Source: an uncultured Acidobacteriota bacterium
GTDB taxonomy: Bacteria; Actinomycetota; Acidimicrobiia; Spongiisociales; ZC4RG35
Length of the DNA: 64,000 nucleotides
NCBI GenBank assembly: GCA_963724825.1
Contig: CAVRWT010000003.1
Coordinates: 183,807-247,806 of the forward strand
Direction of reading: 5' to 3'
This document shows, in pieces, positions 25,244-53,031 of this stretch. The position numbers and the translations under genes are program-made. The first letter of the stretch is position 1, and the number at the start of each line of letters is the position of its first letter. The notes under the pieces are model-generated. The model saw only the letters and a program-made list of their open reading frames with translations. It had not been told where the DNA came from and did not search any database.

Positions 25244-25282
25244 TCCTTTAGCGTTGGGCCACCAAACGCCAGGAAAGCCTCG

Positions 25283-26268: not shown

Positions 26269-26274
26269 ATCCGG

Positions 26275-26937
26275 TCAGCCAACCCGGGTTATCAGTTCGA
26301 CCAATTTGAGGACGTTCTGTCCCGCCTCCGGGCTGAGGGTTTCGTCCGAGGCCGCCAGGAGCAACGAGGGCACCACATCCTGGAGGGCAGCGAGAATCAC
26401 CGCGTTGTCGCCGGTCGGAGTGTCCACCAATATCTCAACCGGCGAGATCAGCCGATCGGCAAGACCAGCCCCGAACGACGCGAAGAGGTCGAGCCGATGC
26501 CCATCCACGTCCTGGGTGACCAAATGGCGGGCGTTGCCCGAGTCGGGAGTCACGTTGATCAGGTGGAACTCCACCCCCGAATTGGTGGCGGTTCCCGCGT
26601 CGTCCACGGCGATGTCACCCGACAACACCTCGCCGAAACCTTGGGCGAACCCGCTCCAGAAGTTGGCGGCTATCGCTTCGTCGCCGTTCTCGAGCGCATC
26701 GGCGACCTCAGCCGAGCTCGCCCCCTCCGCCAGGGAAGCGAGGGCGGCATGGCCGGGCATCGCCAGCGAGCTTGCCGCTGCGAAGTCACCATCGACGAGA
26801 AGATCGTGCAGTTCCTCGACCGCTTCCACTGCCGACGCGGCGCCGGGGCCGCGGGTGATGGTGGTGTCGACACTCTCCGCACCCCGGCAGGAGACTGCCG
26901 CCACCACCAGAAACGCCAGGGCGGCCCGCCTACGCAT
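26275..26937 (-). CDS. Hypothetical lipoprotein (start inferred at 'MRRRAALAFLVVAAVSCRG')
   Basis: Signal/lipobox followed by an acidic Ala-rich domain. The upstream 26 codons overlap the next gene. Confidence 0.45.
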   Translation of the reverse strand: MRRRAALAFLVVAAVSCRGAESVDTTITRGPGAASAVEAVEELHDLLVDGDFAAASSLAMPGHAALASLAEGASSAEVADALENGDEAIAANFWSGFAQGFGEVLSGDIAVDDAGTATNSGVEFHLINVTPDSGNARHLVTQDVDGHRLDLFASFGAGLADRLISPVEILVDTPTGDNAVILAALQDVVPSLLLAASDETLSPEAGQNVLKLVELITRVG

Positions 26938-27469
26938 CCTCAGTGACCAGCTCGGGGATGCGCCCGGTGCGGTAGAGGGCTGCCCGCTTGGCGCGATCGG
27001 TGAGGCCCGTGGCAAACCAGAGCCAGATCAGATAACCCAACCCCACGAGGTCGAGGATCCACCGCCATGGGTCGTGCAGAGCCCGCTCCCAGGCCGATGC
27101 CCAATAGGGCATGACGCCGGCGGCAATGTCCCAGCCGAAGAAGGGCCAGAACAGGACCTCGGGCTCGGTCCACATCCCGTCGAGCAGGAGATGGAACAGC
27201 CAGCCGACGCCGAGGGCCATGAAAGCGCGCCGCCTTCTCCCCCGGCGGGTCGCCAGCAGGACGACTGCCATGTAGAGGGTGGGAAGCAGCAGGGTGTGGA
27301 AGTAGAGCTCGCCGGTCGAGAACCGCCTCGGAAAGAAGACGGTCCCCACGAGGAGATCCACCAGGTCGGGGAGGATCGCCCCAAACAGGAGAAACCTGAC
27401 GTCTACTTTCGGGTCCCGAAATATCCATCTGAACAGCCACAGGGTTGCCCCTGCGTGCCAGAAGAGCAT
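26930..27469 (-). CDS. Membrane-bound metal-dependent hydrolase, YdjM/DUF457 family
   Basis: 179 aa with four TM segments and conserved His/Asp positions ('FHTLLLP', 'HLLLDGM') typical of DUF457. Confidence 0.6.
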   Translation of the reverse strand: MLFWHAGATLWLFRWIFRDPKVDVRFLLFGAILPDLVDLLVGTVFFPRRFSTGELYFHTLLLPTLYMAVVLLATRRGRRRRAFMALGVGWLFHLLLDGMWTEPEVLFWPFFGWDIAAGVMPYWASAWERALHDPWRWILDLVGLGYLIWLWFATGLTDRAKRAALYRTGRIPELVTEDA

Positions 27470-27472
27470 TGC

Positions 27473-28180
27473 TCAGGGAACCAGGATCCGACGGCAGTGG
27501 ACGCACCGCGGGATCTCGGCGTCGAGGGCTTCGGCGGCTTCGGCGGCGGACAGCGCCATGTGACAACCGCCGCAGACGCCATGTTCGAACCGCCCGATGG
27601 CGACGCCCTCCTTTGACAGGCGCAGCTTCTCGTACATCTCGAGGAGGTCGGGAGGAATGGGGACGATCGCTTCCTTCTTCCGCTCCTCTTTGCGAGCCAG
27701 TTCGGCGTCGATCTGCTTCCACTCCGCCTTGATCACCTTTTCGAGCGATTCCTTCTCGGAGGTCAGCAACCCGATCTCATCGGTGAGTTTCTGGGCCGTA
27801 TCCCGGGCCGGATCGAGGTCGTCGAGCAGGGCTAGAACCCGCTCCTCCATCGCCGAACGTTGCCCTTTGAGGCTTTGCACTTCGAGACGCATGTATTCGG
27901 TTTCTCGGGCGCTCATCCCACCGGCGTAGAGCCTGGTCTCATGTTCGGTGAGCTTGCTCTCCAACATCTCCAACTCGCCCTCGCTCTTGTCGAAGTCGAG
28001 CTCCATCGTCTTCAGAATGTCCGACGCCTCGACCAGCTCCTTCTCGAGGGCGGCCTGCTTCTCGTGGGCCTGGCGATAGGCGTCGAGCTCGGGCAGTGAC
28101 TTGCGCCTGTCGAGGAGGCGATCGATCTGGAGATCTAGGTCTTGGACATCGAGCAGGTCGGCAAGGCTCGTGATCTCCAT
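27473..28180 (-). CDS. Zinc-ribbon/coiled-coil protein (COG1579, DUF164), conserved partner of Nif3
   Basis: Long coiled coil, then the C-terminal C4 ribbon 'CGGCHM...CVHCRRIL'. Starts at 'MEITSLADLL' within ORF 27473..29173. Confidence 0.75.
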   Translation of the reverse strand: MEITSLADLLDVQDLDLQIDRLLDRRKSLPELDAYRQAHEKQAALEKELVEASDILKTMELDFDKSEGELEMLESKLTEHETRLYAGGMSARETEYMRLEVQSLKGQRSAMEERVLALLDDLDPARDTAQKLTDEIGLLTSEKESLEKVIKAEWKQIDAELARKEERKKEAIVPIPPDLLEMYEKLRLSKEGVAIGRFEHGVCGGCHMALSAAEAAEALDAEIPRCVHCRRILVP

Positions 28181-28203
28181 GAAGGCCGGAGGGTAGCGGT
28201 GGC

Positions 28204-28984
28204 TCAAACCCAAGTCTGCGGGTCGAGTTGGGTCAGATCGACCACTTCGACGCCGACTCGGGACCGGATCATCTCGAGCAGTGATGCCATGCCCGGGCGC
28301 TCGGTGGCGATGTGCCCCGGGGTCGATGACCGACAGACCCGCATCCAGTGCCGCCACCGCCTTGTGATGGCCCACATCTCCGGTGACGAGGACGTCGGCG
28401 AGAACTGCAGCCTGATCGACGAAATCCGAGCCGGATCCGGGAACGACGGCCACCCGGCCCACCAGTTCGTCGAGGTTCCCCGAGACCCGGGGTGAGGTCG
28501 TCGCCAGGACTTTGGCCACCAATCCCGCCAGATCGCGAAGACTCCCCTGGTAACTCCCGACCCGCCCGATGTCGGGCAGTCCTTGCTCTTCGTCGGCCCC
28601 AAACGGCACCGGTGTCAACAAGCCGAGGGCCGCGGCGAGGGAATCGGCGGCCCCACCTGGCGCGGCGTCGAAGTCGGTGTGAGCCACGACCACATTGACC
28701 CGGGCCTGTATCAGGCGAACGGCACGCGCCACCGGCGAGCGACCCGCGGTCAGGCGATTGGTGGGCGCGAACAAGAGGGGGTGGTAGCTGATCAGGAGGT
28801 CGATCGGGGCGGCCTCGATTGCCGAGACGACGGCCTCGGTCACTTCGTGACAGACGCCGATCTGGGCCACCGTGGCATCGGGGTCTCCGATCTGAAGCCC
28901 CACCGGGTCCCAGGCCGCAGCCGTCTCGGGGCGAATGACTTCGGCGAGCGAGGCCAGAACGTCGGCAACGGTGGTCACCATGAG
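28204..28984 (-). pseudogene. Nif3-like dinuclear-metal protein (GTP cyclohydrolase I type 2 family), +1 frameshift near 28330
   Basis: The body '[12 protein letters not shown]...HTDFDAAPGG...' is in the frame of ORF 27473..29173. The true C-terminus 'GHIATERPGMASLLEMIRSRVGVEVVDLTQLDPQTWV*' is in ORF 28204..28602. The junction is at a 'ccccggggc' run. Confidence 0.7.
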
Positions 28985-29099
28985 GATGGTAGGAGTGTCC
29001 GGCCCCCGTCGACCGTTGTCCCCCCTTTCCAAGGGGGGACCGCCCGAGCTCCGCTCGGGCGATGGGGGGTTAGCCACCGTCCCTATCCTCCTCATCCAA

Positions 29100-30138
29100 A
29101 TGGATCTCACCGCCCCCCTCGCCTTCCAGCCTCCGAGCGGATGGCAAAAGGTGGTCGTCGTCGACTCCCACACCGGTGGTGAGCCATTCCGGATCGTGGT
29201 TTCAGGGGTCCCCCAGCCCGTTGGCGATACCGTCCTCGAGCGGCGTCGCTACGCCGAATCGCATCTCGATCATCTGCGTCGGATCCTGATGTGGGAGCCG
29301 AGAGGGCACTCAGACATGTATGGAGCATTGATCGGGCCCCCAACGGCCGAGGACAGCGACCTGTCCGTGCTCTTCATGCACAACGAGGGCTTCTCGACCA
29401 TGTGCGGCCACGGGATCATCGCTCTCGACCAAGGTCGCCCTCGACACCGGCATCCTCCCCGTGACCGGGCCGGAGACCACGATTCGCATCGACACCCCGG
29501 CGGGTCAGGTGGTGGCCACGGCGAGCGTGTCCGGCGGGGTGGTCGACCGGGTTCGCTTCCGCAACGTGCCCTCGTTTGTCCTCGAACTCGACGCCACCGT
29601 GGAGGTGCCTGGCCACGGCACGGTCGCCTACGACCTGGCCTTCGGCGGTGGCTTCTATGCCTACGTCGATGTGGCGACCGTCGGGCTGACCTGCACTCCC
29701 GCCGACGCTGCCGGTTTGATCGAGATGGGGCGCCGGATCAAGCAGGCGGTCAACGCCTCCCGGGAGATGCGCCACCCGTTGGAGGAGGATCTGAGCTTCC
29801 TCTACGGCGTGATCTTCGTCGGGCCTCCCCAGGACCCGGCCAACCACTCCCGCAACGTCTGCATCTTCGCCGAGGGCGAGCTGGATCGGTCACCTACGGG
29901 CACCGGGGTCAGCGGCCGGCTTGCCATCCACCACGCCCGGGGAGACATCGGGATCGACGAGCCGATCGTCGTCGAGAGCATCGTGGGGAGCACCTTCACG
30001 GGGCGCGTCGCCAAGACCGTCGAATTCGAGGGGCTGCCGGCGATCATTCCGGAGATCGAGGGGCAGGCCCACATCCTCGGCCGAAGTGAGTACTGGATCG
30101 ACGCTGCCGACAAGCTCGCCGAGGGGTTCCTGGTGTGA
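29100..30138 (+). pseudogene. Proline racemase / 4-hydroxyproline epimerase / trans-3-hydroxy-L-proline dehydratase family protein, one frameshift near 29425
   Basis: N-terminal part 'MDLTAPLAF...[19 protein letters not shown]...CGHGIIAL' (inside ORF 28935..30089). C-terminal part '[17 protein letters not shown]...' is ORF 29461..30138 in another frame. Confidence 0.7.
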
Positions 30139-30262
30139 TCAGGTCCACCCCGAATTCATCACGTTCGACCAGTGAATGCGTCCGGCAGTAGATTCTGCCG
30201 ACACGCCACGTCCGCGACTGTTCCTCGCTGTGGTCAACGACCGGCCAACGTGAAGGACCGTC

Positions 30263-31254
30263 TTGCATCTCCTGATGGGTTTCGACAGCAACTACGCCAT
30301 GCCGGCTGCAGTCACGATTCGCTCATTGGGCCGATCACTGTGCCGCGCGAGTCCACAACCATCCACATTCTCGGTGTCGATTTGAGCGCCGAGGCCCGCG
30401 GACGGATCGAAGAGTCCGACAACCCCTTCAATCCAGCTGGTCTGGTAACGACTTCGACCCGAGTCAGATCGCCGATCTCCCCGATCTCCTCGATCAAAGA
30501 TGAGATCTACATCACAAGGTCGGCCTACACCCCGATCTTCTTCGATCACTACATCCACCCCGAAGTTGACCGGTTCCGCCTTCCTCCTGGACAGCGGACA
30601 CCCTGGTTCGACAGTCGCCTCTCGCCGTCATCCTGAATCTCGGTGACGCACCCTGGCGGCGGTGCAGGACTTCGGTTGCTCCACCGCGATCGGGCTGCCC
30701 AGAGGAGTCGCCGGATGGCGGGAAATGGGGCTGGACGGACGGCTGCCCGCCTTCAACACCCAGGGTTCGTGCTCATCGACCGTGCGGCGTGGAAGGCAAG
30801 CCGGGTCGAGGACCGGTGCATCGACTATCTGACTCGTTTTGGGTCTTCGATGACGAACTACGGGACCGACCCCCTCCACCAACGCCGGCGGTATCACCAC
30901 CTCGACTCGAAGTGGAACTACCAGGTCGTGATCGAGTGGGCGTTTGGAGGCGACAAGGCCATGGCCTACGCCTTCATCGCACACGACCAACTCGACGAAG
31001 CTCGCTCCAACCCGGCGATCGTTCACTACAACGGTGACCTCAAACCGTGGCTCACAAAAGGAAGCAAGTTGCCATTCCTCGCCGAGTGGCAGGCCGCACT
31101 CGATGAAACGGCGTGGCGGGGAACCCCACCGGCCGCTCCGAAGCGAGCTTCGCCCTGGCAAATCGCCAAATACCGTGGCCGAAAGGCGAGTCGCGCCCGT
31201 TCGGACGTTGACCACCTATGGCGCGGGCTACGCAAGGTGATCGTCTGGCGGTGA
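30263..31254 (+). pseudogene. Glycosyltransferase family 8 (LgtC/RfaJ-like) pseudogene with at least five frameshifts
   Basis: GT8 signature pieces lie in successive frames: 'LHLLMGFDSNYAMPAAVTIRSLG', 'TIHILGVDLSAEARGRIEE', 'AFLLDS', 'ADTLVRQSPLAVILNLGDAP', 'LAAVQDFGCSTAIGLPRG', then 'GFVLIDRAAWKAS...HYNGDLKPW' (ORF 30643..31254). Confidence 0.65.
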
Positions 31255-31369
31255 TCGGCTGGGGCCGCAGCTGAAAAGATACCATCCCCGGCTCTGAAAC
31301 GGATCGGATGGAAACCGTCCTCCTCGTCGATCCGAATCTCGATAGGGCGCAATTGCTGGCTGCGGAGGT

Positions 31370-31443
31370 TGGGCGTTGAGGGACTTGAACCCCCGACCCC
31401 TGCCTTGTAAGGGCAGTGCTCTAGCCAACTGAGCTAAACGCCC
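31370..31443 (-). tRNA. tRNA-Val (anticodon TAC)
   Basis: The minus-strand sequence GGGCGTTTAGCTCAGTTGGCTAGAGCACTGCCCTTACAAGGCAGGGGTCGGGGGTTCAAGTCCCTCAACGCCCA forms a cloverleaf. The anticodon loop is CTTACAA. There is no encoded CCA. The overlapping ORF 31228..31428 is spurious. Confidence 0.85.
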
Positions 31444-31465
31444 GGGATGATCAGTTTACGAGGGA

Positions 31466-32305
31466 TCAGTATCCGCTCAGTGCGCCGATCTTTCGCCCGT
31501 AGTCGAGGGTGCGCCCGAAGGTCCACATGGCTATCGGGTACATCACTAGCGAGAACACGGCCAGGGCGCCGATCGCCTGCAGAGCCGTCGGACCGGCAAG
31601 CACCTCACCCTGAGGCATCATCACGCGCCGCAGGGCCTGGATCACGTAGGTGTGTGGGATCACCCAGGAGAAGGCACGAACCCAACTCGGCAGCAGCTCT
31701 AAGGGGAAGAAGGCGCCCGACAGGACCGAAGCCGCAATGGTGTAGAGCTGCAACACCGGGTCGCTGCGCTTGGAGATCACCTTGATGCTCGCCCCGAGTA
31801 TCCCGATGGACAACGTGGCCAGAAGACCCATGATGACGATCACGATGGCGGCGGGTATGCCCGAGGCGGCGTACTCGGCTCCCAGTGGGATCGACAGCAA
31901 CACCATGACCGAGACGGTGGCGACATTCTCGACGAGCGGCCAGGGCAGGATCGCAAAGGGCAGCGCCCGCCATGGCACTGGCTCGACCAGGAACATCTCC
32001 AACTGCCCCTGGGTGACGAAGGCAAGCATCGCGCTGCCGAACGCATTGAGGGTCACACCCAGGAGCGTCATCGCTGCGACTCCGAGCACGACAAACGTGT
32101 AGTAGTCGAAGGCCACGTCGCGGCTGTCGTTGCCCACCAGTTCGGCGACGAATTTGAAGGTGATCACGGGGACGAAGGCGGAGAGCCCGTGCATCACCAG
32201 CGCCAACGGGTAATTGAGGGAGTCCCGCACCGCGATCAGGAAGAAGGCGTTCCCGATCTGACCCCACCGCCTCACCCGCTTCACGGGACCTGAGAGGACG
32301 CTCAT
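31466..32305 (-). CDS. ABC-2 type transporter permease
   Basis: 279 aa, six TM segments, directly downstream of the ATPase gene with an overlapping stop/start. Confidence 0.7.
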   Translation of the reverse strand: MSVLSGPVKRVRRWGQIGNAFFLIAVRDSLNYPLALVMHGLSAFVPVITFKFVAELVGNDSRDVAFDYYTFVVLGVAAMTLLGVTLNAFGSAMLAFVTQGQLEMFLVEPVPWRALPFAILPWPLVENVATVSVMVLLSIPLGAEYAASGIPAAIVIVIMGLLATLSIGILGASIKVISKRSDPVLQLYTIAASVLSGAFFPLELLPSWVRAFSWVIPHTYVIQALRRVMMPQGEVLAGPTALQAIGALAVFSLVMYPIAMWTFGRTLDYGRKIGALSGY

Positions 32306-33297
32306 TCCTCTTCGTCCCCGGTGACGCGAAGCATGTTGCGCAGCACCTCACGCAAGCGGGGCTGTGTGAGCCCGATCGAATGGATGTGATCGACATGAGC
32401 ATCGATCTCACGGATGATGAGCCCCATCGGCAGCTCGGTGCTCACCACCAGATGCGACCCATCCAAGTCGACGCCGTTGACTCCTGGCAGCCGTTCGAGC
32501 AGGGTCATGACGTTCCCAGCCGATTGCTCGCCGTCGAATTCGATCTCGATCACCGGCTTCTTCGCTTGGGCGAGCATCAGGTCGAGGTCGCCGGAGTGGA
32601 CGACGTGTCCCTTGTTGAGCAAGACGACCTTGTCGTCCAGAAGTTCGACCTCGTCCAAGCGGTGGGAGCTGATCAGGACTGCGAGCTTTCGCTCTCTGGC
32701 GATCCCCTGGATGAGGGTGAGCAACTCGAAGGAAGCGATCGGATCGACCGCAGCTGTCGGCTCATCGAGGATCAGGACCGCCGGCTCGTGGAAGATCGCC
32801 CGAGCCAGCATGAGGCGAGCCAGCATCCCCGAGGAGAGGGCGAAACCCACACGATCTCGGGCCTCGTACAGCCCGACCTGCTCCAGAGTCTCGTCGACCC
32901 GGTCCTTTAGGTCATGCTTCGAGACCCCCTGGAGACGACCATGAAATGCCAGGTTCTCCCGACAGGAGTGCCTCAGCAGCAGAGTCCGGTTCTCGGCCGG
33001 CATGAACCCGATCAGGCGCCGCACCGCCGTCGACTGGGTGGTGGTGTCGTATCCGAGGATCGACGCCGACCCGCTGGTTGGGGTAGTCAAACCGGTGAGC
33101 ACCCGGAAGAGCGTCGATTTCCCGGCGCCGTTCGGGCCGAGGACCGCCACCATGTCGCCAGGGTGCACTTCCAGCGAGATCTCGTCGACGGCTACCACCG
33201 CCTCTTTGACCGAAGTTCGGAGCAGCAGCTTCATCCACCGGGTGTACGGCTCATAGACCTTGCGTAAATGGTCGATGATGACGATGGGATCAGACAT
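32302..33297 (-). CDS. ABC transporter ATP-binding protein (ABC-2 exporter family, C-terminal accessory domain)
   Basis: Starts 'MSDPIVIIDHLRKVY'. Walker A 'GPNGAGKST', 'LSSGMLARL' and Walker B 'LILDEPTAAVD'. The upstream 163 codons of ORF 32302..33786 look non-coding. Confidence 0.75.
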   Translation of the reverse strand: MSDPIVIIDHLRKVYEPYTRWMKLLLRTSVKEAVVAVDEISLEVHPGDMVAVLGPNGAGKSTLFRVLTGLTTPTSGSASILGYDTTTQSTAVRRLIGFMPAENRTLLLRHSCRENLAFHGRLQGVSKHDLKDRVDETLEQVGLYEARDRVGFALSSGMLARLMLARAIFHEPAVLILDEPTAAVDPIASFELLTLIQGIARERKLAVLISSHRLDEVELLDDKVVLLNKGHVVHSGDLDLMLAQAKKPVIEIEFDGEQSAGNVMTLLERLPGVNGVDLDGSHLVVSTELPMGLIIREIDAHVDHIHSIGLTQPRLREVLRNMLRVTGDEEE

Positions 33298-33438
33298 GTA
33301 TTCCTTCTTGCGATCCCGTGTCGGGCCGAAACAGGGAGCGAGACTACCGGCAGACCAGCCATTTGCTATCGGCGGAACTTGCCCTCGCCTGTAAGGCGTC
33401 GCCGATCGCGGCCACTCGCCTGCTGAACTGGACCGAAG

Positions 33439-34340
33439 ATGACAGATGCCGTGAAGCTCTATGGAGTCCTCGTGACCTACGCCAGGACTGCCTCGCTCGC
33501 TGTCACGTTGGAGCGGCTTCGGGCACAGACCCGCCAGCTCGATCACCTCTATGTCGTGGACAACGGGAGTAGCCCCGAGGCCCGCCAACTCGTCGAGCAA
33601 TGCGCCTTCGCCGCCACCTATCTCGACGCCGGAGACAATGTCGGCCCGGCCGGTGGTTATGCCCTTGGCATGGAAACGATCCTCCAAGAGGCCAACGATT
33701 CCTGACTGGATCTTCCTTTTCGACGACGATGACCCGCCCTTCTTCGACGATGCCCTAGAGAACGCAGGGCTTTTCGCGGAACGCATGACGATGGCTCATC
33801 GAGAGGTTGGTGCGGTCGGCATCAGCGGAGGTCGATTCGACTTCGGCTCGGGCCGTGTGATCCGGATTGGCGACGCCGACATCAAAGGACCGGTCTCCGT
33901 CCACCACATCACGGGAGGCGGGCTGCCCGCCTATCGGGTCGGTGCCGTTCGACAGGTCGGCGTATTCCTGGCCGAGCTCTTCTTCGGCTTCGAAGAGCTC
34001 GAATACGGATTGCGGCTGACTGCTGCCGGCCACGGGTTGTTTGCCGACGGGGACGAGTGGGCACGGTCGGAAGTCGGTAAAACGGGAAGCCGGGCTCCTC
34101 CAATCCGAGGAGGACTCCGTCGCAGTGTCCGAAGCAGACCTCGCTTCGCCTCAGTGGGACCCCATGGCGTCGGTACTACAGCCTCCGCAACATGATCTAC
34201 TTGCTGCGCCGCCATGGCCGCACCGCCACCGCAATCAAGGTCGCTGCAAGCCGTGGCGTCGGGAAACCGCTCGCCAACATCGTCACCAGCCCTGGGCTGG
34301 CATGGGAATCAGCTCAGACTGAACTTGCGAGCGATCCGTG
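33439..34340 (+). pseudogene. Glycosyltransferase family 2 (rhamnosyltransferase-like) with at least three frameshifts
   Basis: 'VLVTYAR...YVVDNGSS' is ORF 33439..33705. 'DWIFLFDDDDPPF...' is ORF 33551..34195. The conserved C-terminus 'YYSLRNMIYLLRRHGRTATAIKVAASRGVGKPL' is in a third frame ending about 34340. Confidence 0.6.
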
Positions 34341-34380
34341 ATGGCTTCGGTGGCCGAATGGGGCGGACCGTCGAGCCCGG

Positions 34381-35158
34381 CTAACCGGAGTCGAACCAGA
34401 CCCGTTTCTGACCGGTGCCGGTGGCAAGCAGGTCCCCAACGCTGCGTGGCATGCAGCCCCTTTCCCGCGAGACCGACCAGGACTGCCTCCACCACGTCCG
34501 CCTTGCCGCCTGGCGGGTGTGGAATCCTCCTGGGCCGGGAGTCGGTGTCCAGCCATCGTGGAGCAAGACGACCGACCCGAGACCCGATTGCTCGACTGCC
34601 CGTCCCACGATCTCGTCGGTGCCCTTCTGATCCCAGTCGTGAGGATCGACCGACCACATGATCACTTTCATGCCCCGAGACCGCGTCATCAGAAAGCTGC
34701 TAATCGTTTGCGCCCCGTACGGCGGTCGGAAGAGCCTGATCGGGCCTCCAACCACGGCTGACAACCGGTCCCGGCCGCCGTGAATCCTGTCAGCCACCTG
34801 ACGGCTGCCAAGACGAGTCAAGTTGTCGTGGTTCGCCCCATGCAGGGCTGCCTCGTGGCCCTCGGCGACCACGCGCTCGCGCAATCTCGGGATATTGCTC
34901 GGCCCGCTCGGAGAGCATGAAGAAGGTCGCCGTGGCACGACGTTCCGCGAGCAGGTCGAGGACCGCGGGGGTGACCACGGGGTCGGGGCCGTCGTCAAAC
35001 GTCAGCGCAACGATGGGCTTCGTGGTACGACCGCTGTTATCGAGCCCAATGCCTTGGTCGCGAGCGGTGGAACCCATCCCCAACTGGCGCAACGGCGTCG
35101 GCAGACTCTGAGCTTTGCGCTCCACCTTGACGACTGCGTTGCGAACCCGATCCGGCAT
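34381..35158 (-). pseudogene. Polysaccharide deacetylase (CE4/NodB) with at least two frameshifts
   Basis: 'IVALTFDDGPDPVVTPAVLDLLAERRATATFF' is ORF 34790..35158. 'HGANHDNLTRLG...RLFRPPYG...VVLLHDG' is ORF 34381..34998. The tail 'GGKADVVEAVLVGLAG' is in ORF 34283..34657. Confidence 0.6.
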
Positions 35159-35276
35159 CTACCCCACCATTCCTCGACGCCCACGCCTCCCCGGCGCGAC
35201 AATCGCGATCCTACAAGAGGGGGTTCAAGCCACCCCAGCTTGACCTACCGGTTGTCTCCGTGAGAATGCGTGAGCC

Positions 35277-36264
35277 ATGACTTCGCCATTGGTAACTGTT
35301 GTGATCACCACCAAGGACCGCCACCAACTGGCTGACCGGGCCCTGGCCGGCTCTCCAGCAGACCTTCTCCGACCTCGAAGTGGTCGTTGTGGACGACGGT
35401 TCCACCCCTGCCTACGAGCCATCTGTCACCGATGGCCGGATCCGTCTTCTACGCAATGACTCATCTCGCGGCGTTTCCCGGCACGGAATGCCGCTCTTGC
35501 GGTCGCGAATGGGGAATGGATCGCCTTTCTCGATGACGACGATGCTTGGCGCCCTCAGATGCTGGAGGTGTCGCTACAGGCAGCAGCCGAGTCGAACCTC
35601 CCCGAACCGGTGTCGGTGCTCTCCGGAGCAGAGATCAGAGATCCCGATGGGAAAGTTCTGAGGACACGTTTCCCGCCGACTCTTTCCCGGGGACAGCACT
35701 ACTTCCTCGAAGACCTCTCCGAAGGTGGGAGCTTCCAGACCCACGCAACCTTGGTTGCTCCGACTGATGTGGTGCGGGCCATCGGTGGCTTCGACGAAGC
35801 GCTGTTGGCCAGCGTCCACGACGACTTCTACCTTCGCCTCAATGCGGTGAGCTCGATTCAGGGCACGCCGATCGTCACCTATGAGATCACAGCCCACCCT
35901 GGGTCACGGGTCTCCAAGTCCGTCCTGGCCCGAGCGGAGGCGATGGAATCGAACAGTCGCCAAACACAAGGAGAAGTTCAGCCAGCACCCGCGGCGCTAC
36001 GCCAAGTACTTGTCGATGATGGGAGCCACTTATCTGCGGGCCGGCAAATGGGGGCCGGCGGTCAAGGCGACGACACGTTCGATCGTGGTCGACCCGGGTC
36101 GTGGAGAGTCCTATCGCTGGTGGCTGGCGTCCCTTGGTGGTCCATGGACTCTCCGGGTCGGGCGCCGGGTCCTCGGTGAAGACACCGAGAAGGCCGAACG
36201 ACGAGTCAAGTATGCGGGGTCGGACCCGGAACCGGACCGGTCGCAAGCCGAAATGGAAGGCTGA
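35277..36264 (+). pseudogene. Glycosyltransferase family 2 with at least three frameshifts
   Basis: Fragments in four frames: 'PLVTVVITTKDRHQLADRAL', 'LEVVVVDDGSTPAYEPSVTDGRIRLLRNDSSRGVS', 'AARNAALAVANGEWIAFLDDDDAW...' (my translation, joining ORF 35559..36179), and 'AKHKEKFSQHPRRYAKYLSMMGATYLRAGKW...' (ORF 35881..36264). Confidence 0.6.
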
Positions 36265-36269
36265 CCATC

Positions 36270-36998
36270 GTGGCGAGATACAGAAAGACCGCGCGGCTGG
36301 TTCACACCCTGGGCCTCGACTCGATCGCCCATCGACTTGCAGGCTCGCTCTGCGAAGTCGCCACCGACCGACCGGTGTTTCATCTCACCTTCGACGATGG
36401 CCCCCACCCCGAGGTCACGCCCCGGCTTCTCGACCTCTTGGAAAGCCGCCAGGCTCCGGCAACGTTCTTCGTCCTCACCGAGGCGGCGGCGGCGAACCCT
36501 GAGCTGGCCCGGGAGATCTTGGGGCGTGGGCATGACATCGGGCTGCACAGCCGAACCCACCCCCGCCTCTCGACCGCCCCGTTCTCGACGCTCGTCGACG
36601 AGATTTGGAAGGCGCATCACGAACTCGAGGCACTCGTCGAGCGGCCCATTTCGCTCTTCCGCCCGCCCTACGGAGCTCACGGGATTCGCTCGACATACAT
36701 GGTCAAAGCGAGAGGGATGGAAACGGTGCTCTGGTCGGTCGACTCCGAGGACTGGAAGGGATTGCCGCCCGACGAGGCGTTGGACGCCAAGAAACTTCGC
36801 CCCGGTGGGATCCTGCTGCTCCACGACACCCCAGCCAGGGGTTCTGTAGTCGCCGATCAAGACCTTGGTTTGATAGACAAGGTGGAATTGACGGGGCTCT
36901 ATCTCGACGAGCTGAGCAGCCTTGGTCTGAGCCCGGTGTCCCTCGGCGACCTCAGATCAGGCGGCAGTCCTGTGCTCCGGGCCAAGGTCGCCAAGTGA
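36270..36998 (+). CDS. Polysaccharide deacetylase (CE4/NodB), intact
   Basis: 'VFHLTFDDGPHP', 'HSRTHPRL', 'LFRPPYG' and 'ILLLHD' present; 242 aa in a single frame. Confidence 0.8.
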   Translation: MARYRKTARLVHTLGLDSIAHRLAGSLCEVATDRPVFHLTFDDGPHPEVTPRLLDLLESRQAPATFFVLTEAAAANPELAREILGRGHDIGLHSRTHPRLSTAPFSTLVDEIWKAHHELEALVERPISLFRPPYGAHGIRSTYMVKARGMETVLWSVDSEDWKGLPPDEALDAKKLRPGGILLLHDTPARGSVVADQDLGLIDKVELTGLYLDELSSLGLSPVSLGDLRSGGSPVLRAKVAK

Positions 36999-37023
36999 TT
37001 GAGTTCCATCCGGCGAGCCCGAG

Positions 37024-37332
37024 TTGAACCGGCTGGCCATTGCCGAGAGTCTCTTCTCGACCCTCGACAAAGAGCACATCAGATACAGCCACTGGAAGAG
37101 CAACGAGCATCTAGTAGCCGCACTCCAAGGTCTGACCGATCTCGACCTGCTGGTGATGCCGGCCGACAAGGATCGATTCACGGCCATCGTCGCGGATCTC
37201 GGCTTCGTTCCCATGGTGGCTGCCGAGATAGAGATCCCGGAAGTGGAGAGCTACCTGGGATTCGATCCGGATACCGGCACGCTCCTCCACCTCGACGTCC
37301 AATACCGTCTGATCGTCGGTGAGCAGTTATAA
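37024..37332 (+). CDS. Hypothetical protein, nucleotidyltransferase-like N-terminal fragment (102 aa)
   Basis: 'HIRYSHWKSNEHL...GLTDLDLLV'. It ends at TAA. The next ORF (GTG, 37378) is in the same frame after two stops, so this may be a nonsense-split gene. Confidence 0.3.
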   Translation: MNRLAIAESLFSTLDKEHIRYSHWKSNEHLVAALQGLTDLDLLVMPADKDRFTAIVADLGFVPMVAAEIEIPEVESYLGFDPDTGTLLHLDVQYRLIVGEQL

Positions 37333-37377
37333 AACCATCACTTGCCGGTCAGGATTGGCTCTTCGGGTGGTAGTTAG

Positions 37378-38257
37378 GTGTCAGACCCCGGAAGGAAGGC
37401 CGAGGTCACCGGCTTCAAGGAGCGTGTCGTACTCGACACCGTCGACTGGCGTTACGTCCTCGACCGCAGACAGTCGCTCCGGAAACGACTCAGACAGCAC
37501 GAACGCCTCCGGCGTTATCAGGCGATCTCGAAACGGCTGGGCTTGTGGTTTCGCTCGACCTCAATGGCGAGGAGGCTCGGCTGGGGCATCCCGAAGAGGA
37601 AGCTGGCCGGAAAAGCCCCTCTGGTCGCCACGGTTGGCGCCGACGGTTCGGGCAAGAGCCGGCTGACCAAAGACCTGGAGCGATGGCTGGGGTGGAAGCT
37701 CGAGGTGCGACACGTCTACTTCGGCCAGCCCAAAGGCGGGGTGGTTTGGAGGCTGCTCAGCAAACCAGGGAGCCTTCACGCGCAAAGGTGGGGACAGTCC
37801 GGGCAGTATCCGCAAAGTGGCCACACGCACCGATACCTGGAAGTGGTTGTGGCTGGCCAGACACCGGCGTCGGCTGGCTCAGAAGGCGCGGGATGACACC
37901 CGGAATGGAGTGACCGTCATCGCCGAGCGCTTCCCGCTCGCCGAGTTTTACCCCATGAGCGAGCCGATGGATGGCCCGCGGCTTCAAGGGTCCTCAGGCG
38001 GTACTGCGAGGAGAGAGCTCGCCATATATCGAGGCATCGAGCCGCCCGACTTAACGATCATTCTCCAAACCGACTTGGGAACCCTCCGCGATCGCAAGCT
38101 CGATCTCACTCTCGAGGAGCACACAGCGAAAGTGGAGGCAGTGGCCGGACTGACGCCGGGTCCGGGTCGTGTCATCATCGACGCCGGTCCCCCATACGAA
38201 AGAGTCCTTCTCGAGGCAAAGGCCGCAGTCTGGGAGGCGATCCTTGCGACACGTTGA
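37378..38257 (+). pseudogene. P-loop NTPase/kinase-like protein, one frameshift near 37810
   Basis: Walker A 'VGADGSGKS' is in ORF 37378..37896. The continuation 'VTVIAERFPLAEFYP...LTIILQTDLG' is ORF 37817..38257. Confidence 0.45.
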
Positions 38258-38990
38258 GTTCCTTGGCCTGCCCGGGTCCGGGAAGACCACTCTCGTCACC
38301 AAGGTGGTGGCGGCCTTGGATGGTGCGATCGAGCTCGAGGATGCGGTGCGCTCGGCCGTCGCCGCCGGCGGCATCGATGCCACTTCCAGGACCGCAGCCC
38401 GGGTTTCAAGGTCGAGCTCGAGCCGTCTTTGGAAGAGCGCCTACGCCCGATCTACTGACCGCTTCGATGCACTGAAGAGGTTCCTCTCGGCGCATCCCCA
38501 GCTCATGGAGACCGTCCTCGCCGCTCAAAGGGAACGCCGTGATCGTGACCGCGGTCAGGACCTGGTCTTGGGGTGGGTGATGAATCTGTTCGCTCGATAC
38601 CAACTCGCCACCGAGGCCGAAGCTTCCGAGTTTCTGCTGATCGATGAAGGGTTCTGCCAGCGGGCGCTGGCCCTGTTTGGATACGGCTTCGCCCCGGAGG
38701 ATCAACCTCGCCTCAATGACTATCTCACCGAGATGCCGAGACCCGAGGTAGTCGTCCTGGTCGAGACGCCGCTCGCCAGATGTGTGGAGCGTCTCGACAA
38801 GAGAGGTTGGTCGGAGCGACTCATCGGGCTCTCGCCTGACGTTCGCCGCGGCTTCCTCGACACTTCGTTCGAGGTGTTGGGACAGGTGGCCGACCAAGCT
38901 GAAAGGCTGGGCTCCCGGGTCATCCGCGTTGACGGCGAGCAACCGGCAGACGTCGGAAGCCAGGCCGTGGTCGTTCTCCTCGCTGGCTGA
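38244..38990 (+). CDS. P-loop NTPase (sulfotransferase/kinase-like), TTG start inferred at 'MRHVEFLGLPGSGKTT'
   Basis: Walker A 'GLPGSGKTT' sits at the extreme N-terminus. The upstream part of ORF 38169..38990 overlaps the preceding gene. Confidence 0.45.
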   Translation: MRHVEFLGLPGSGKTTLVTKVVAALDGAIELEDAVRSAVAAGGIDATSRTAARVSRSSSSRLWKSAYARSTDRFDALKRFLSAHPQLMETVLAAQRERRDRDRGQDLVLGWVMNLFARYQLATEAEASEFLLIDEGFCQRALALFGYGFAPEDQPRLNDYLTEMPRPEVVVLVETPLARCVERLDKRGWSERLIGLSPDVRRGFLDTSFEVLGQVADQAERLGSRVIRVDGEQPADVGSQAVVVLLAG

Positions 38991-39099
38991 CCCAGCGCCC
39001 GAAGTCATAATTCTGGGAACTTGGTAGCGTCCGCGAAACTTATCGAGATAACCACTTGGAGTGGTCGAACAACCCTCTTAGTATTCACGAACAGAAGCT

Positions 39100-42025
39100 G
39101 TGGGGCTTCTCCAAACAACGGGCATGGGAGACAAATCAATGGGCAGCCGGATCGCTCCGGATGGGGGCACGCGTTTCTTCGTTTCGCTACTAGTCATCGC
39201 ACTGGTGGCATCAATGGTCCAATTCGTGGCGGTGGCACCGGCCTCCGCAGTGGCCGGAGATCTCGGCCCAACCATCGTTCCTGGGACCAGCACCGCTGCC
39301 CTTGAAGACGAGGACGGGCAATGGGATACCAAGAACCAACACCGTTCCTGGTTCGTGGAGAACCGCTGGGACGCCATTCTCCCGATGAAGTCCGTCGCCA
39401 ACGGCGGGGTTGCCTCCGTCGAATCGGCATGGTGGATAGTGAGAAGGCGATCCCCGAAGCCTTCGGGAATCAACCGATCACCACCGGCGGCGCTGAGGTC
39501 AGCGCCGCCCCCACCCACCGCCCGGACGTCTTCTGGGACGACACCGCAAACACTCTCTACATTCTTATGAGCGGCGCCGCCACCACCACCCTCTACGTCT
39601 ACACCTACGACGACGGTACCGACACCTACACCTTCTCCCACAGCTCCGACGTCCCCGATTTCGAGGCGTCCAACTCCCGGGCCGCGATCTTCAAGGACAG
39701 CAACGGCGACCTCTGGGCATCGAAGATGGATGGTGGCGGCCTTGACGTCAGTCGCTCCGGTGACAACGGGGTGTCCTGGTTGACGCCAGTCACCCTGACC
39801 TTGCCGGTGGACGAGGGTCAGACCGCGATCACCGAGGTTGGCGGCACCCTGGCCGTAGCCGCTGCCGAGAACGGAGATGGGCTCGACGTCGCCGAGGCCG
39901 GCCGCTTCTCCAAATACCTCTTCTACACCCTGCCGCTGGCTCAGGCCGCCAACTTTGCCAATGTCATCTACGGGACCGGGACCCTCACATTTACCGGTGT
40001 CGTCACGCCCGGTGAGACCGTGACCATCGGCTCTCGCACCTACCAGTTCGTCGCCACCATGGTCGGGGCGGTCGAGAACGACGTCCTAATCGGGGGCAAC
40101 GCTCGAGCGAATCTGGCGTTGGCGATCAACCACGAGGGAACGCCCGGACTGCAGTACCACGCCGACACCGAAGCCCATCCCGACGTGTTCGCCGAGGACA
40201 CGGGGACACTGCTCCTCACCGCCAAGGCGTCGGGCACGGAGGGGAACGTCGCTACCACAGAGACCATGGTCAATGGCGCTTTCGGGGCGGCGACCCTCAC
40301 CGGCGGCGCCTCGACATGGACTCGAGAGAACGTCCCCCTCGCCCAGATCGGTGTCGACCCCGACCAACGTGGCCGTGTATCACGCTGATGACGAGATCAG
40401 TCTGGTGCGGAGCGACCGACATCTACATAGCCACCGAGACCTCACGCACTTGCACCGGAGCCGGCTGTGGCAACTCGGGGTACTTCACGTCAAACCCACA
40501 GGTGATCCTGTACAAGCGGACCTCGGCGGGGGTGTGGACTCAGCACAACGTGAAGCTGGATCAAGCCAGCTCGACGCTGGACCGCAAGCGTCCGGTAGTG
40601 ACCATTCTCGACACCAACCTCTACATCTTCTCGATCGACAACAACCGGACCAACAGCGCCTACTGGGTCAGATCACTCACCACCGCCCTTCCCACGGGGT
40701 CATGGGGAGGGACCAACGGGTTCGCCTTCAACACTCAGTTCGAATCGTTTCCGAAACAACATCCTCCCCCGGGACCCGGTGACTACCGCTCAGCGGCTCC
40801 CGGTCCTGATCGACTGGGCCAACGAGGATCCGAGTCAGGACGCCACCATTTGGCAAACCAGCTTCCCCAACTCGGGCAACCAGGTGCCCGGCGTGTTCGC
40901 CGGTGAGGACAAGACGGTCAACCTGACACCGGCCACCAGTCTCGGCGGTGTTGTCACCAACGACGGCTGGGCGGTGCGGTGACCTCGCAATGGACTGTGG
41001 TCTCCGTTCCTCCCACAGGATCGGCAATCATCACCAACCCGGCGAGCCCGACCTCGACCGTGTCCTTCACCCTGAGCGGGGTATACGTGTTGCGTCTCAC
41101 GGCGACCGAGACCGTGGCGAACACGCTGACCAACTCCGACGACGTGACGATCAACGTGACCGGGATCAACAACACCCCACCGACAGTCTCGGTGGCCGAG
41201 CCTGACAACGGCGACAGCGCCACGCCGGGCTCGGTGGTGTTGTTCCAGGCCACAGCCAGCGACCCCCAGGATGGTGATATCTTCAGGTGCCATCGTGTGG
41301 ACCTCGAGTCGCGACGGAGTCATCGGGTTCGGTGGATCCTTCGCCGAAGACCAATCTCAGCACCGGAGTCCACGTCATCAAGGCCACCGTCTCCGATGGT
41401 GAGTTCTCGGTGTCCTCGCCGAACATATCCCTGACCATTGGGACCGGTGGCGGCGGAGGAGGTGGCGGTGGTGGCACGCCGGACAACCCGTTCATCGACG
41501 ATGACGGCAACGTGTTCGAGAACGCCATCGAATGGCTTTATGCGCAGGGGATCACCCAGGGATGCAACCCTCCCACCAACAACAGGTTCTGCCCCAACGA
41601 CTTCGTGACCCGGGGACAGATGGCCGCCTTCCTGGTTCGAGCCCTGCACTACACGGCAGGGGGCAACACCAATTACTTCGTCGATGACAACGGGAACGTC
41701 TTCGAAGGCGCGATCAACAAGCTGCGCACCGCGGGCGTGACCCTGGGCTGCAACCCCCCGACCAACAACCGGTACTGCCCCAACGACTTCGTGACCCGGG
41801 GACAGATGGCCGCCTTCCTGGTCCGGGCCTTTGGCTACTCGGCCGGTGGGAGCACCAACTACTTCATCGATGACAACGGAAGCGTGTTCGAGACCGCCAT
41901 CAACCGGTTGCGCACCGCGAGTAACCCAGGGCTGCAACCCGCCAGCCAACAACCGGTACTGCCCCACTGCCAATGTCACCAGGGGCCAGATGGCCGCCTT
42001 CCTGAAGCGGGCACTCGGTGGTTAG
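39100..42025 (+). pseudogene. Large secreted surface protein: signal peptide, BNR/sialidase-like repeats, PKD/Ig-like domains, poly-Gly linker, three Cys-containing SLH-like repeats; at least five frameshifts
   Basis: Signal 'FFVSLLVIALVASMVQFVAVAPASA'. BNR motif 'SRSGDNGVSW'. Ig-like 'TINVTGINNTPPTVSVAEPDNGD'. 'GGGGGGGGGG' linker. SLH-like 'VFENAIEWLYAQGITQGCNPPTNNRFCPNDFVTRGQMAAFLVRAL' x3. Fragments are in ORFs 39100, 39321, 40316, 40779, 40979, 41287 and 41831. Confidence 0.6.
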
Positions 42026-42080
42026 AGCTCGGATCTGATCATCGAGTGCCCGTACACGGGCTAGAGAGGGGAAACAGGGG

Positions 42081-44413
42081 ATGTTTGGGAGGATGAGGCG
42101 GCGGCTGACGCTGGTCGGGTTGGCGTGTTCATTGGTGGTGACCGGAGCGCTCCCCGGTGGCCTCGGGATTGCACTGGCGATCGACGATCCGGCCGATTTG
42201 GTGCAGGTGGTCGACACCACGACTGCTTTCACTCCGAGTTCGCCCGGGCCGGCGGATGGCGTGTCGACCGGCACATGACGGCTTGAACGCAAGCCTGATC
42301 GTGGTCGACTCCGATACGACCACCCGGGGACCTTCTTCGTTCGACCTCACCACCGGTCTCATCCGCTACACCAGCGACCCCGCTCTTGGCGGGGTCAACC
42401 ATGACGCCACAGGGTGTCGCCTATGACAGTGCGAGCGGGACTCTGTTCATTTCCAGCGGCAGCAGTTCGACGTCTTCCTTTTCCACGCCGGGACAGATCG
42501 AAGATTCGACACCGGCGACGACAGCGCCGTGACCCAGATCAAGTCGGCAGTGACACGGAGGACCCGGCCTTCAATCCCGACAATGGTCATCTCTGGTTCT
42601 GGACGGTGAGACCGGAACCGTTCTATGACATCGACCCCGTCGTGAACGGATTTGGTGATCTAGACGACACGATCACTCCGTTTTCCATACCTCAGGATGA
42701 CGACGGCAACCTTCCCGGGACTGGGAAGGGCTTGCCTACGACCCGGTCAGTCACAACCTGATCGCCGGCGCCAAGTTCAACAACCAAATCATCTTCGAGT
42801 TCACCACCGCCGGGGTCTACGTCCAGCAACACGACACCTCGAGCCTCGGCGATCTGCAACAGATATCGGGTCTCGGCGCCCAACCCGAAACCGACCCGTA
42901 CCCGGTCACGTACTGGATCGCCGACCGAGGGGTCGAGGGCTCTGTTCAAGATGGCAAGCTCTTTCGAGTCACCTTTGGCCCAGCTCCGGTCCTGCCCCCG
43001 GCCCCGCCGGTGCTGACAACGATTCCCCCGATCCCGGCAGTCAACGAGGGGACACTGGTCACTTTCGACGCCAACGCCACCGACCCGAACATCGCTGACA
43101 CGTTGACCTTCTCCATCCATCCCACGCTCCCGGGGTCACCCCCCGGCGCGACGATCAACGCCACCACCGGAGTGTTCACCTGGACCCCGACCGAGGCCCA
43201 AGGGCCTGGGTCCGGCGCCTACATAATCAGAGTGGTCGTCAGCGATGGCGCCGAGACGGACTTCCAGGATGTGTCGATCACTGTCAACGAGGTCAACTCG
43301 CCGCCGGTGATCACCGGCGGCCCCTTCACTCCACTCCACGGTGAGGGGGAGGCAGTCACCTTTGACATGCACGGCACCGACTCCGATCTCCCGGCACAAA
43401 CCAAGACCTGGAGCGCCACTGGGCTGCCTCCAGGGCTGGGGATCAACACTGCCACCGGGCGGATCTCGGGAACCGTGAGTGCCGGCGCCACTTCTGGTTC
43501 GCCGTACTCGGTGCAGGTCACGCTCTCCGATGGAATCGCCCAGGACATCGAGAACTTCGATTGGACGATCCAGAACACCAATCCACACGCCCCAGTGTTG
43601 AACCCCATCAGCAACAAGACCATCACCCAGGGTTCGGCGTTGACCTTGAAAGCGACCGCCAGCGATGCGGATAGTGGCCAGACTCTGACGTTCTCGCTGG
43701 TGAACCCACCCGGCGGGGCCACCATCTCGAGCAACGGCAATTTCAGCTGGACTCCAAGTCAGGCCGGCAACTACCAGGTGACAGTGAAGGTGACCGACAA
43801 CGGAAGTCCGGCCCGGAGCGACAGCAGGACATTCACGGTGACCGTTCAGGCCCAGCCTCCAGTGAATATCAACCCGTTCGTCGATGACGACGGAAGCGTT
43901 TTCGAGAACTCGATCGAGTGGCTCGACTCCCAGGGAATTACCTCTGGATGCAACCCCCCAATGAATGATCGCTTCTGCCCCGATGACTACGTGACCAGGG
44001 GCCAGATGGCCGCCTTCCTGGTCCGGGCACTCCACTACAGCGACGGGGGCAACGTCAACTACTTCATCGACGACAACGGTCACGTCTTCGAGAACGCGAT
44101 CAATCGGCTGCGCACCGCTGGGGTGACCCAGGGATGCAACCCACCGACCAACAACCGCTACTGCCCCAATGCTTTCGTCACCCGGGGACAGATGGCAGCG
44201 TTCCTGGTCCGGGCGTTCGAGTACACCGCTGGGGGGAGCACCAACTACTTCATCGATGACAACGGGAACGTGTTCGAATCGGCCATCAACCGATTGAGGA
44301 CAGCCGGGGTCACTCTCGGTTGCAACCCCCCTGTCAATGACCGGTACTGCCCCAATGCCTTGGTCACCCACGGACAGATGGCGGCCTTCCTAAAGCGCGC
44401 CCTCGACGGTTGA
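42081..44413 (+). pseudogene. Secreted surface protein: signal peptide, YjiK/phytase-like beta-propeller region ('WEGLAYDP'), three Ig/cadherin-like domains, three SLH-like repeats; frameshifts confined to 42250-42760
   Basis: Signal 'LTLVGLACSLVVTGALPG' (ORF 42081). The broken N-terminal third is spread over ORFs 42157 and 42414. The intact 467-aa C-terminus (ORF 43010..44413) includes 'FVDDDGSVFENSIEWLDSQGITSGCNPPMNDRFCPDDYVTRGQMAAFLVRAL'. Confidence 0.6.
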
Positions 44414-46112: not shown

Positions 46113-46145
46113 CCACCGGTCGCTGCCACCCGCCAGGAGTCACGC

Positions 46146-48087: not shown

Positions 48088-48116
48088 AAGGGGGCAATCT
48101 CGGTTTCCAGTGCTCG

Positions 48117-52957: not shown

Positions 52958-53031
52958 GCTTCGCTCTCAGTCACCGACGACCACATCGCTGAACCGAAGG
53001 CGTAGGGTGGCTGCTCTCAACACCATAGGAG

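Follow-up and report, generated by a model that had tools for sequence, protein, structure and literature searches.

A probable envelope-glycan locus at a fixed chromosomal site in Acidimicrobiia, within a block of single-base frameshifts

We analysed a stretch of 64,000 nucleotides (~63% G+C; hereafter the window) from an uncultured bacterium placed in the class Acidimicrobiia (GenBank assembly GCA_963724825.1, contig CAVRWT010000003.1, positions 183,807 to 247,806 of the forward strand). Next to a tRNA-Val gene it carries genes for a GT8-family and two GT2-family glycosyltransferases (GT8, GT2a and GT2b), an ABC-2 exporter pair (permease and ATPase), two NodB-type CE4 deacetylases (CE4a and CE4b) and two proteins with predicted kinase folds, followed by genes for proteins with S-layer homology (SLH) domains. 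Many of the reading frames are broken. Taken at face value, these features would describe a free-living soil actinobacterium with a glycan island that was acquired horizontally and is now decaying, and an earlier annotation made from the DNA letters (the original prediction) had indeed described an acquired island that is being lost. The evidence says otherwise. The genes probably represent an envelope-glycan locus that is conserved in this lineage of Acidimicrobiia and fixed in its chromosomal position, and the lesions belong to a much longer stretch of single-base insertions and deletions (indels), for which an error of assembly is the likely source.

The glycan locus has a fixed chromosomal position

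Species-representative genomes were scanned with the ATPase of the window, which retrieved metagenome genomes of Acidimicrobiia at 63-79% identity (designated L001, L002 and so on). Several of them belong to the ‘MFD’ genomes, assembled with Flye and Medaka from Nanopore data alone, for which Nanopore-associated errors are acknowledged (PMC12313526). The cluster lies next to the gene for proline racemase in at least six related soil Acidimicrobiia (L001, L002, L007, L009, L010 and a JGI short-read contig). L010 is colinear with the window across 24.2-44.4 kb. The upstream flank with the genes for LLM oxidoreductase, zinc-ribbon protein, Nif3 and proline racemase is present in L007, L009 and L010; for L007 and L009 it also includes the genes for a hypothetical protein and YdjM, and both genomes share the downstream genes with the window. 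In the short-read genomes L001 and L002 the permease gene directly adjoins the proline racemase gene, without GT8 and without a tRNA.

On the JGI contig, the closest relative, with an ATPase that is 86% identical, every gene is intact and the order is that of the window: an SLH/He_PIG protein, a 964-aa protein, a 249-aa AAA protein, a 475-aa protein, a CE4 (244 aa), a GT2 (329 aa), a CE4 (258 aa, opposite strand), a GT2 (314 aa), the ATPase and the permease, then an epimerase, a GFO/IDH/MocA oxidoreductase and a GT8. Because the cluster adjoins the same flank in the relatives and is intact throughout on the JGI contig, the locus has a fixed place in the chromosome of this lineage and is known in intact form. 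An orthologous intact locus at the same position, which would speak against an island, is thus largely what the five genomes and the JGI contig present.

The slot between the proline racemase gene and the cluster differs among the genomes. It holds GT8 and tRNA-Val in the window, GT8 with an oxidoreductase and an epimerase in L010 and on the JGI contig, an amidase-like protein and tRNA-Val in L007, an unassigned 356-aa open reading frame (ORF; methyltransferase-like by eye) in L009, and nothing in L001 and L002. The adjacency of the ABC-2 permease and ATPase genes to those of cytoplasmic glycosyltransferases is kept in 10 relatives, and the glycan locus is linked to SLH genes in L003, L009, L010 and the JGI contig as well.

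The frameshifts form a 29-kb block

Pfam families were assigned by scanning stop-to-stop ORF fragments, and the frames of orthologues were compared with the window DNA by frameshift-aware protein-to-DNA dynamic-programming alignment. Third-codon-position G+C by frame was too noisy at 63% G+C, and alignment to orthologues was used in its place. Between 25715 and 40417 we found ~28 robust frameshifts, all of +/-1 nt and with conserved residues matching the reference on both sides (for counts per gene see Table 1). Calls at 26854, 35273, 36145, 36230, 37352, 37380, 38088 and 40485 were discarded as alignment artefacts or errors of the L010 reference. The SLH proteins and a gene at ~54.85 kb contain further ones. 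The broken frames reported by the original prediction for GT8, both GT2 genes, CE4a and the P-loop fusion gene described below are therefore real. The lesions are not restricted to positions 30263-38990 but run from 25715 to ~54.85 kb.

Since the genes before 25.2 kb and after 55.7 kb are full length, the lesions form a block of ~29 kb. The full-length genes encode CcmF (672 aa), CcmH, a 544-aa exonuclease, a SpoU methylase and others on the left, and sigma-70, DUF1684, an amidohydrolase, a response regulator and a histidine kinase on the right. In ~15 kb of full-length genes outside the block there were 0 frameshifts (P~5e-13 if the rate of the block held there). As controls of sequence quality we used ccmF and ccmH, the cytochrome c maturation genes, which are intact at 13077-16089. 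The block starts mid-gene in the LLM oxidoreductase, takes in the likewise unrelated genes of Nif3 and proline racemase and extends over the glycan locus and the SLH proteins. In comparison with L007 (83% nucleotide identity over 23563-30131), the four frameshifts of the flank are single-base insertions in the window, and all other coding-sequence gaps in this range are multiples of 3.

Assembly error or real decay

Across seven broken genes with 23 frameshifts between them, 2,422 codons could be aligned, and not one in-frame stop was found among these. With 10 substitutions per indel, about 6.5 stops should have occurred (P=0.0015), and with 5 per indel 3.2 (P=0.04); these ratios come from general knowledge of bacterial mutation spectra. 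Against L007, the ratio of non-synonymous to synonymous substitution rates (dN/dS) lies at 0.10-0.12 in flank genes with frameshifts, compared with 0.05-0.09 in their intact neighbours. In a relative-rate test, window-specific and counterpart replacements numbered 34 vs 39 in the flank genes, 169 vs 140 in GT2a and 15 vs 21 in GT2b; there is no excess change on the window branch in these genes. Homopolymers are no more common at frameshift sites than elsewhere (the longest run averages 2.32, vs 2.52 in the background), and no shared motif or k-mer at the indel sites, such as the methylation motif GATC, was significant after multiple-test correction.

Because the lesions are of +/-1 nt only, show no homopolymer bias, come with almost no nonsense codons and with low dN/dS, and are accompanied by no excess of substitutions, we consider them to be, with good probability, mainly consensus errors in a long-read metagenome assembly and not biological. 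Such errors most plausibly arose where an otherwise clean contig had low coverage, mixed strains or no polishing. In metagenome-assembled genomes from long Nanopore reads alone, errors are likewise single-base indels, which disrupt ORFs while nonsense codons and relaxed constraint are lacking; the case here differs in that the indels are confined to a 29-kb block, have a density of ~2 per kb and lie off homopolymers. Two of the relatives have frameshifts of their own at positions different from those of the window: L010 in the ATPase, CE4a, the GFO/IDH/MocA oxidoreductase and the fusion gene, and L009 in the fusion gene. These sporadic sites are at ~10439, 8305, 8375, 5822, 5038 and 13480-13503 in L010 and at ~12020 in L009.

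Several points weigh against an assembly artefact. We infer the sequencing platform and the coverage of this contig. Residual errors in polished Nanopore assemblies usually lie at homopolymers, unlike the indels here, which are random in context. The frameshifts are clumped by gene, with none in the exporter pair, CE4b, the AAA_33 gene, zinc-ribbon and YdjM; such frameshift-free genes would also be expected from selection on genes that are still functional. Window-specific replacements are raised in the fusion gene and the large protein downstream (62 vs 17, 117 vs 51 and 84 vs 47), which is partly due to frameshifted L010 references. The fusion gene, finally, contains a TAA at 37330-37332 and a deletion of ~50-57 codons around 37350-37400 which are conserved in all homologues of 471-523 aa. 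These two lesions are not +/-1 errors and reflect either a real lesion or a misassembly.

The clumping that spares exporter, CE4b and AAA_33 gene, the deletion and stop codon of the fusion gene, the raised replacement counts and the position of the indels off homopolymers would all suit a real and recent pseudogenisation, in which the frameshifts are genuine mutations of a strain that is losing its glycan and SLH-protein region. We nevertheless regard it as unlikely. The block breaks unrelated conserved genes, begins in the middle of one and ignores functional boundaries. Natural indels favour repeats, and the ~28 events, all of +/-1 nt and random in context, do not resemble replication slippage. 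Local indel density is as high as 1.7%, with seven indels inside 420 nt of GT8 and substitutions almost absent, and the implied indel-to-substitution ratio is at least 1:1, with the nonsense-free codons, low dN/dS and lack of branch-length excess in the flank genes, GT2a and GT2b given above. The lesion spectrum is also not the mixed one of a locus being lost; only the fusion gene has lesions of another kind, and the ‘heavy decay’ of the original prediction bears the signature of technical indels. Alternatively, the indel burst itself might be real, and a 29-kb envelope segment might have been inactivated very recently by a regional, context-independent indel process that spared the exporter, one deacetylase and one kinase-like gene. 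We know of no regional, context-independent, almost indel-only mutational process in bacteria, and consider such a burst very improbable.

If the block is an assembly artefact, the error stretch may coincide with a strain-variable surface region, and error blocks may do so at other surface loci of this type. Blocks of this kind can mislead pseudogene counts, genome-reduction claims and metabolic reconstructions from long-read metagenome genomes.

tRNA-Val and the origin of the locus variant

The tRNA-Val gene was confirmed by both ARAGORN and Rfam. The original prediction took its position as a sign of a horizontally acquired island. A classical integrative island, put in at tRNA-Val by a site-specific recombinase, would agree with the position of the tRNA at the edge of a variable region, with the gene content between proline racemase and exporter, which differs among the relatives, and with a G+C content of ~0.62 over 30001-58000 vs ~0.65 in the flanks (~2 points lower). 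The limits of this low-G+C stretch differ from those of the frameshift block. However, the 3' end of the tRNA faces GT8 and its 5' end the exporter and the GT2/CE4 block, which is the wrong way round for an insertion of the latter. L007 has the same tRNA-Val, in the same orientation and at the same boundary, together with another type of locus, and in L001, L002, L009 and L010, which lack the tRNA, the cluster occupies the same site. Contrary to what an acquired island would leave in relatives, an empty tRNA-Val site was found in none of L001, L002, L007, L009, L010 and the JGI contig, all of which carry the cluster.

Traces of integration are likewise missing. No tRNA fragment of >=12 nt recurs in the 64-kb window (best match 11 nt, E=0.78), so that the search for att-like repeats of the tRNA-Val 3' end suggested earlier found none, and a search for direct or inverted repeats bounding the locus or its inverted module (see below) gave chance matches only. 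Pfam scans of ORFs and fragments at 30-56 kb, which were not an exhaustive six-frame search, revealed no recombinase or integrase family; the original prediction had come to the same result in finding no integrase remnant. Given the conserved synteny, the lack of att sites and integrase and a decay signature that is probably technical, a tRNA-linked island in the process of being lost is not supported. Nor is insertion of the locus variant at the tRNA, and we rate an integrative island as extremely improbable.

Flank genes and glycan genes do not group the genomes in the same way. In the flank, window and L007 form one group (85-96%) and L010 and L009 another (79-91%), with 67-82% across the groups. 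For GT2a, ATPase and permease, the window groups with L010 (70-87%) and L007 with L009 (75-84%), with 49-65% across. Since flank and glycan genes give discordant trees, the locus variant appears to have been exchanged by recombination. On balance we favour an origin by allelic replacement, in which a variable ‘glycotype’ was swapped by homologous recombination between related Acidimicrobiia. Two further features agree with this: the module of GT2a and the ATPase-permease pair is inverted between the two locus types, with GT8, GT2b and CE4a as extra genes in the window's type, and the nucleotide sequence ceases to be colinear with L007 at 30131, where proline racemase ends. On the other side, only four genomes have enough flank for comparison, the right-hand junction was not found, the downstream genes being equally diverged in all pairs, and unequal evolutionary rates might play a part. 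Allelic replacement concerns the origin of the variant only and is compatible with a fixed locus and an assembly artefact. What stands of the term ‘horizontally acquired’ is thus its weak form, recombination exchange at a conserved site between lineages with two locus variants, and not the tRNA island.

Gene content of the locus

Pfam matches above chance uphold the gene content of the original prediction, namely GT8, the ABC-2 exporter pair, two GT2, two CE4 and P-loop proteins, all of the former in families of polysaccharide synthesis (Table 1). The GT8 orthologue in L010 is full length and covers profile positions 1-251 of 253. The permease is 87.5% identical to its L010 counterpart and free of frameshifts. 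The two GT2 and two CE4 genes do not form equivalent GT2-CE4 pairs as proposed earlier, as CE4a lies on the minus strand, convergent with GT2a; it lacks a signal peptide, and is 258 aa long and intact in the JGI relative. The intact genes were said to be the second CE4 and the exporter alone; the last P-loop gene (38244-38990) is intact too. Directly downstream, Pfam detected SLH domains in five ORFs between 41.3 and 53.4 kb, and several of these SLH proteins are frameshifted. The large N-terminally anchored protein that precedes them has 964 aa in the JGI relative.

Table 1. Features of the window and frameshifts per gene. Positions are those of the window.
Feature	Position	Strand	Description	Frameshifts
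Block of dense +/-1-nt frameshifts	25715-54900		~29 kb, flanked by clean sequence
LLM oxidoreductase				2
Nif3				1
Proline racemase				1
GT8-family glycosyltransferase (GT8)	30211-31254	+	~332 aa when repaired; Pfam Glyco_transf_8 30637-31251, E=1e-10	7, single-base, every one inside 30342-30762
tRNA-Val(TAC)	31370-31443	-	ARAGORN; Rfam 72.5 bits; intact
ABC-2 type permease	31466-32305	-	279 aa, intact; Pfam ABC2_membrane; ~5 hydrophobic segments (hydropathy)	0
ABC ATPase	32302-33297	-	331 aa, intact; Pfam ABC_tran E=3e-31; DrrA/NodI/ABCA-like type	0
First GT2 (GT2a)	33439-34384	+	soluble; 315 aa in relatives; Glycos_transf_2 fragment 33427-33702	4, single-base insertions (33703, 34067, 34131, 34306)
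First CE4 deacetylase (CE4a)	34381-35158	-	Polysacc_deac_1 34384-35158, split across two frames	3 (34876, 34523, ~34450; alignment to L002 and L005)
Second GT2 (GT2b)	35277-36264	+	~329 aa, soluble; Glycos_transf_2 35305-36176	3 (35349, 35480, 35949)
Second CE4 deacetylase (CE4b)	36270-36998	+	242 aa, intact; Polysacc_deac_1 E=1e-30	0
Fusion gene (NTP_transf_5-like + predicted thymidylate-kinase fold)	37003-38257	+	~480 aa in relatives	1 (+1 at 37777)
P-loop protein	38244-38990	+	248 aa, intact; Pfam AAA_33 38169-38990	0
Downstream surface proteins	39011-53361		large N-terminally anchored protein, then at least five SLH-domain proteins	5 in the large protein

Two families of predicted kinase fold

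The original prediction listed three P-loop genes, a nucleotidyltransferase-like, a kinase-like and a third one. The kinase-like nature of these proteins is borne out by their predicted folds, but in relatives there are two genes and not three. The nucleotidyltransferase-like and the kinase-like piece are parts of a single ORF of ~480 aa in the short-read genome L008, on the JGI contig and in a family of 350 homologous proteins of 471-523 aa. The model PF14907 (NTP_transf_5) matches below threshold in 23 of 45 members of this fusion family and marks the N-terminal domain as NTP_transf_5-like.

A PDB sequence search with the P-loop proteins gave no match, and the folds were therefore taken from structure prediction (AlphaFold 2, AF2). 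The model of the fusion protein has a mean confidence score (pLDDT) of 92.6, and the best Foldseek match of its C-terminal domain is thymidylate kinase 4f4i (TM-score 0.71, probability 1.0); this domain is predicted to have a thymidylate-kinase fold. For the 248-aa P-loop protein (pLDDT 95.5) the best fold matches are adenylate and thymidylate kinases with TM-scores of 0.5-0.6, which points to a nucleoside-monophosphate-kinase fold. Its family has 62 homologues, found only in Acidimicrobiia; one of them, P0241, is identical to the window protein. The Walker A motifs GxDGSGK and GxPGSGK are invariant in the two kinase-fold families. In view of these canonical motifs, and of kinases as the top fold matches, a reading of the P-loop proteins as sulfotransferases was rejected. 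Of the earlier proposal that the kinase-like trio phosphorylates or sulfates the polymer, the kinase folds remain, and the sulfation does not.

Predicted function

Hydropathy analysis of the glycosyltransferases, CE4 proteins and kinase-like proteins revealed no transmembrane segment and no signal peptide. Assembly and de-N-acetylation of the glycan are predicted to be cytoplasmic, because glycosyltransferases and CE4 proteins have neither. GT2a is weakly GlfT1/rhamnosyltransferase-like in NCBIfam (best match GlfT1), and GT2b is WcaA/TuaG/EpsD-like. CE4b is NodB/PdaB-like, with 133 bits for PdaB and 129 bits for NodB obtained with the L010 orthologue, both below cut-off. The ATPase scores 192 bits with drrA and also matches GldA and NodI, all below cut-off; its nearest PDB matches are nucleotide-binding domains of ABCA proteins and 4yer.

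From these assignments the following scheme may be proposed. Three soluble GT-A enzymes (GT8, the GlfT1/WbbL-like GT2 and the WcaA-like GT2) would assemble a glycolipid or lipid-linked glycan on the cytoplasmic side of the membrane, and the two cytoplasmic NodB-type CE4 enzymes would take off some of the N-acetyl groups. The DrrAB/NodIJ-type ABC-2 transporter would export the glycan product. The two kinase-fold proteins, which are always encoded alongside, may modify the product, possibly by phosphorylation, or supply a precursor. The product would probably serve the SLH-domain surface proteins encoded directly downstream, as a wall polymer; it is the gene position which suggests this link. 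Some points count against the scheme: biochemical function is deduced throughout, all equivalog scores are far below cut-off, and neither a priming transferase nor a pyruvyl transferase was seen in the 64-kb window.

Across Acidimicrobiia the gene set consists of a GlfT1-like GT2, the ABC-2 exporter, cytoplasmic CE4 proteins, the fusion protein and the second kinase-fold protein, always beside SLH proteins, and this conserved set is a candidate for a cell-wall polymer pathway of the class that has so far escaped description. That the locus encodes an uncharacterised Acidimicrobiia pathway for an SLH-anchoring polymer, with two new kinase-fold enzymes, is a tentative proposal which we would not yet favour, although we rank it likelier than a real indel burst.

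Comparison with known systems

In mycobacteria, the genes Rv3781-Rv3782-Rv3783 encode Wzt, GlfT1 and Wzm, an ABC-2-type pair which flips the finished lipid-linked glycan, together with the glycosyltransferase (PMC13649706). The galactan module resembles the present locus in having a soluble GT2 that acts on a lipid-linked primer beside an ABC-2 exporter pair, and GlfT1 is the best match of GT2a. However, the GlfT1 score of GT2a is 77 bits vs a cut-off of 330, no Wzt is among the 44 PDB matches of the window ATPase (E<=1e-30), the window has neither Glf nor GlfT2, and the CE4 and kinase-fold proteins have no counterpart in the mycobacterial module. With Wzm/Wzt-type pathways in general, the locus shares a permease and an ATPase beside cytoplasmic glycosyltransferases; an assignment of the ATPase to the Wzt/TagH/KpsT subgroup was not obtained, nor was a priming enzyme found.

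The Nod-factor module (NodC, NodB, NodIJ) likewise combines a GT2, a cytoplasmic CE4 without signal peptide and an ABC-2 exporter. The scores are again low (NodB 129 bits vs a cut-off of 240, NodI 125 vs 521), and the locus contains no NodC-type membrane-embedded processive synthase and no NodA acyltransferase. The synthesis of poly-N-acetylglucosamine (PNAG; pgaABCD, icaADBC) also relies on a GT2 and a CE4 that partly de-N-acetylates an N-acetylhexosamine glycan. PgaB and IcaB are extracytoplasmic, whereas the CE4 proteins of the window have no secretion signals; the PgaC/IcaA model TIGR03937 scores 24 bits vs a cut-off of 422, the GT2 proteins of the window are soluble, and export is by an ABC-2 pump. 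Thus, of the exopolysaccharide module resembling PNAG or chito-oligosaccharide synthesis which had been suggested, the families for glycan synthesis and export were recovered, while the features of PNAG were not.

The loci for SLH-binding secondary cell-wall polymers in Bacillus and Paenibacillus have in common with the window a glycan locus with an ABC-type exporter beside SLH proteins. They differ in that no CsaB, TagO/TagA-like primer enzyme or LCP ligase was seen in the 64-kb window. A CsaB-like pyruvyl transferase was absent from the scanned ORFs of the window and may be encoded outside it.

Neighbouring features

The SLH-domain proteins (41287-53361) contain He_PIG/Ig repeats, with a poly-Ser linker near 45.4-45.5 kb, and include two paralogous beta-helix proteins at 48.4-52.7 kb. 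Among their genes lies a third GT2 gene, intact and coding for 328 aa (46146-47132); its orthologue in L008 directly adjoins a CE4 gene of the glycan cluster. In the upstream flank, the broken Nif3 gene is fused in-frame to the zinc-ribbon gene as one ORF of 566 aa (27473-29173). Downstream of the Nif3/zinc-ribbon pair we found a full-length gene for bacterial RNase P RNA of class A (19935-20281, minus strand, 294 bits), an arrangement that also occurs in other Actinomycetota.

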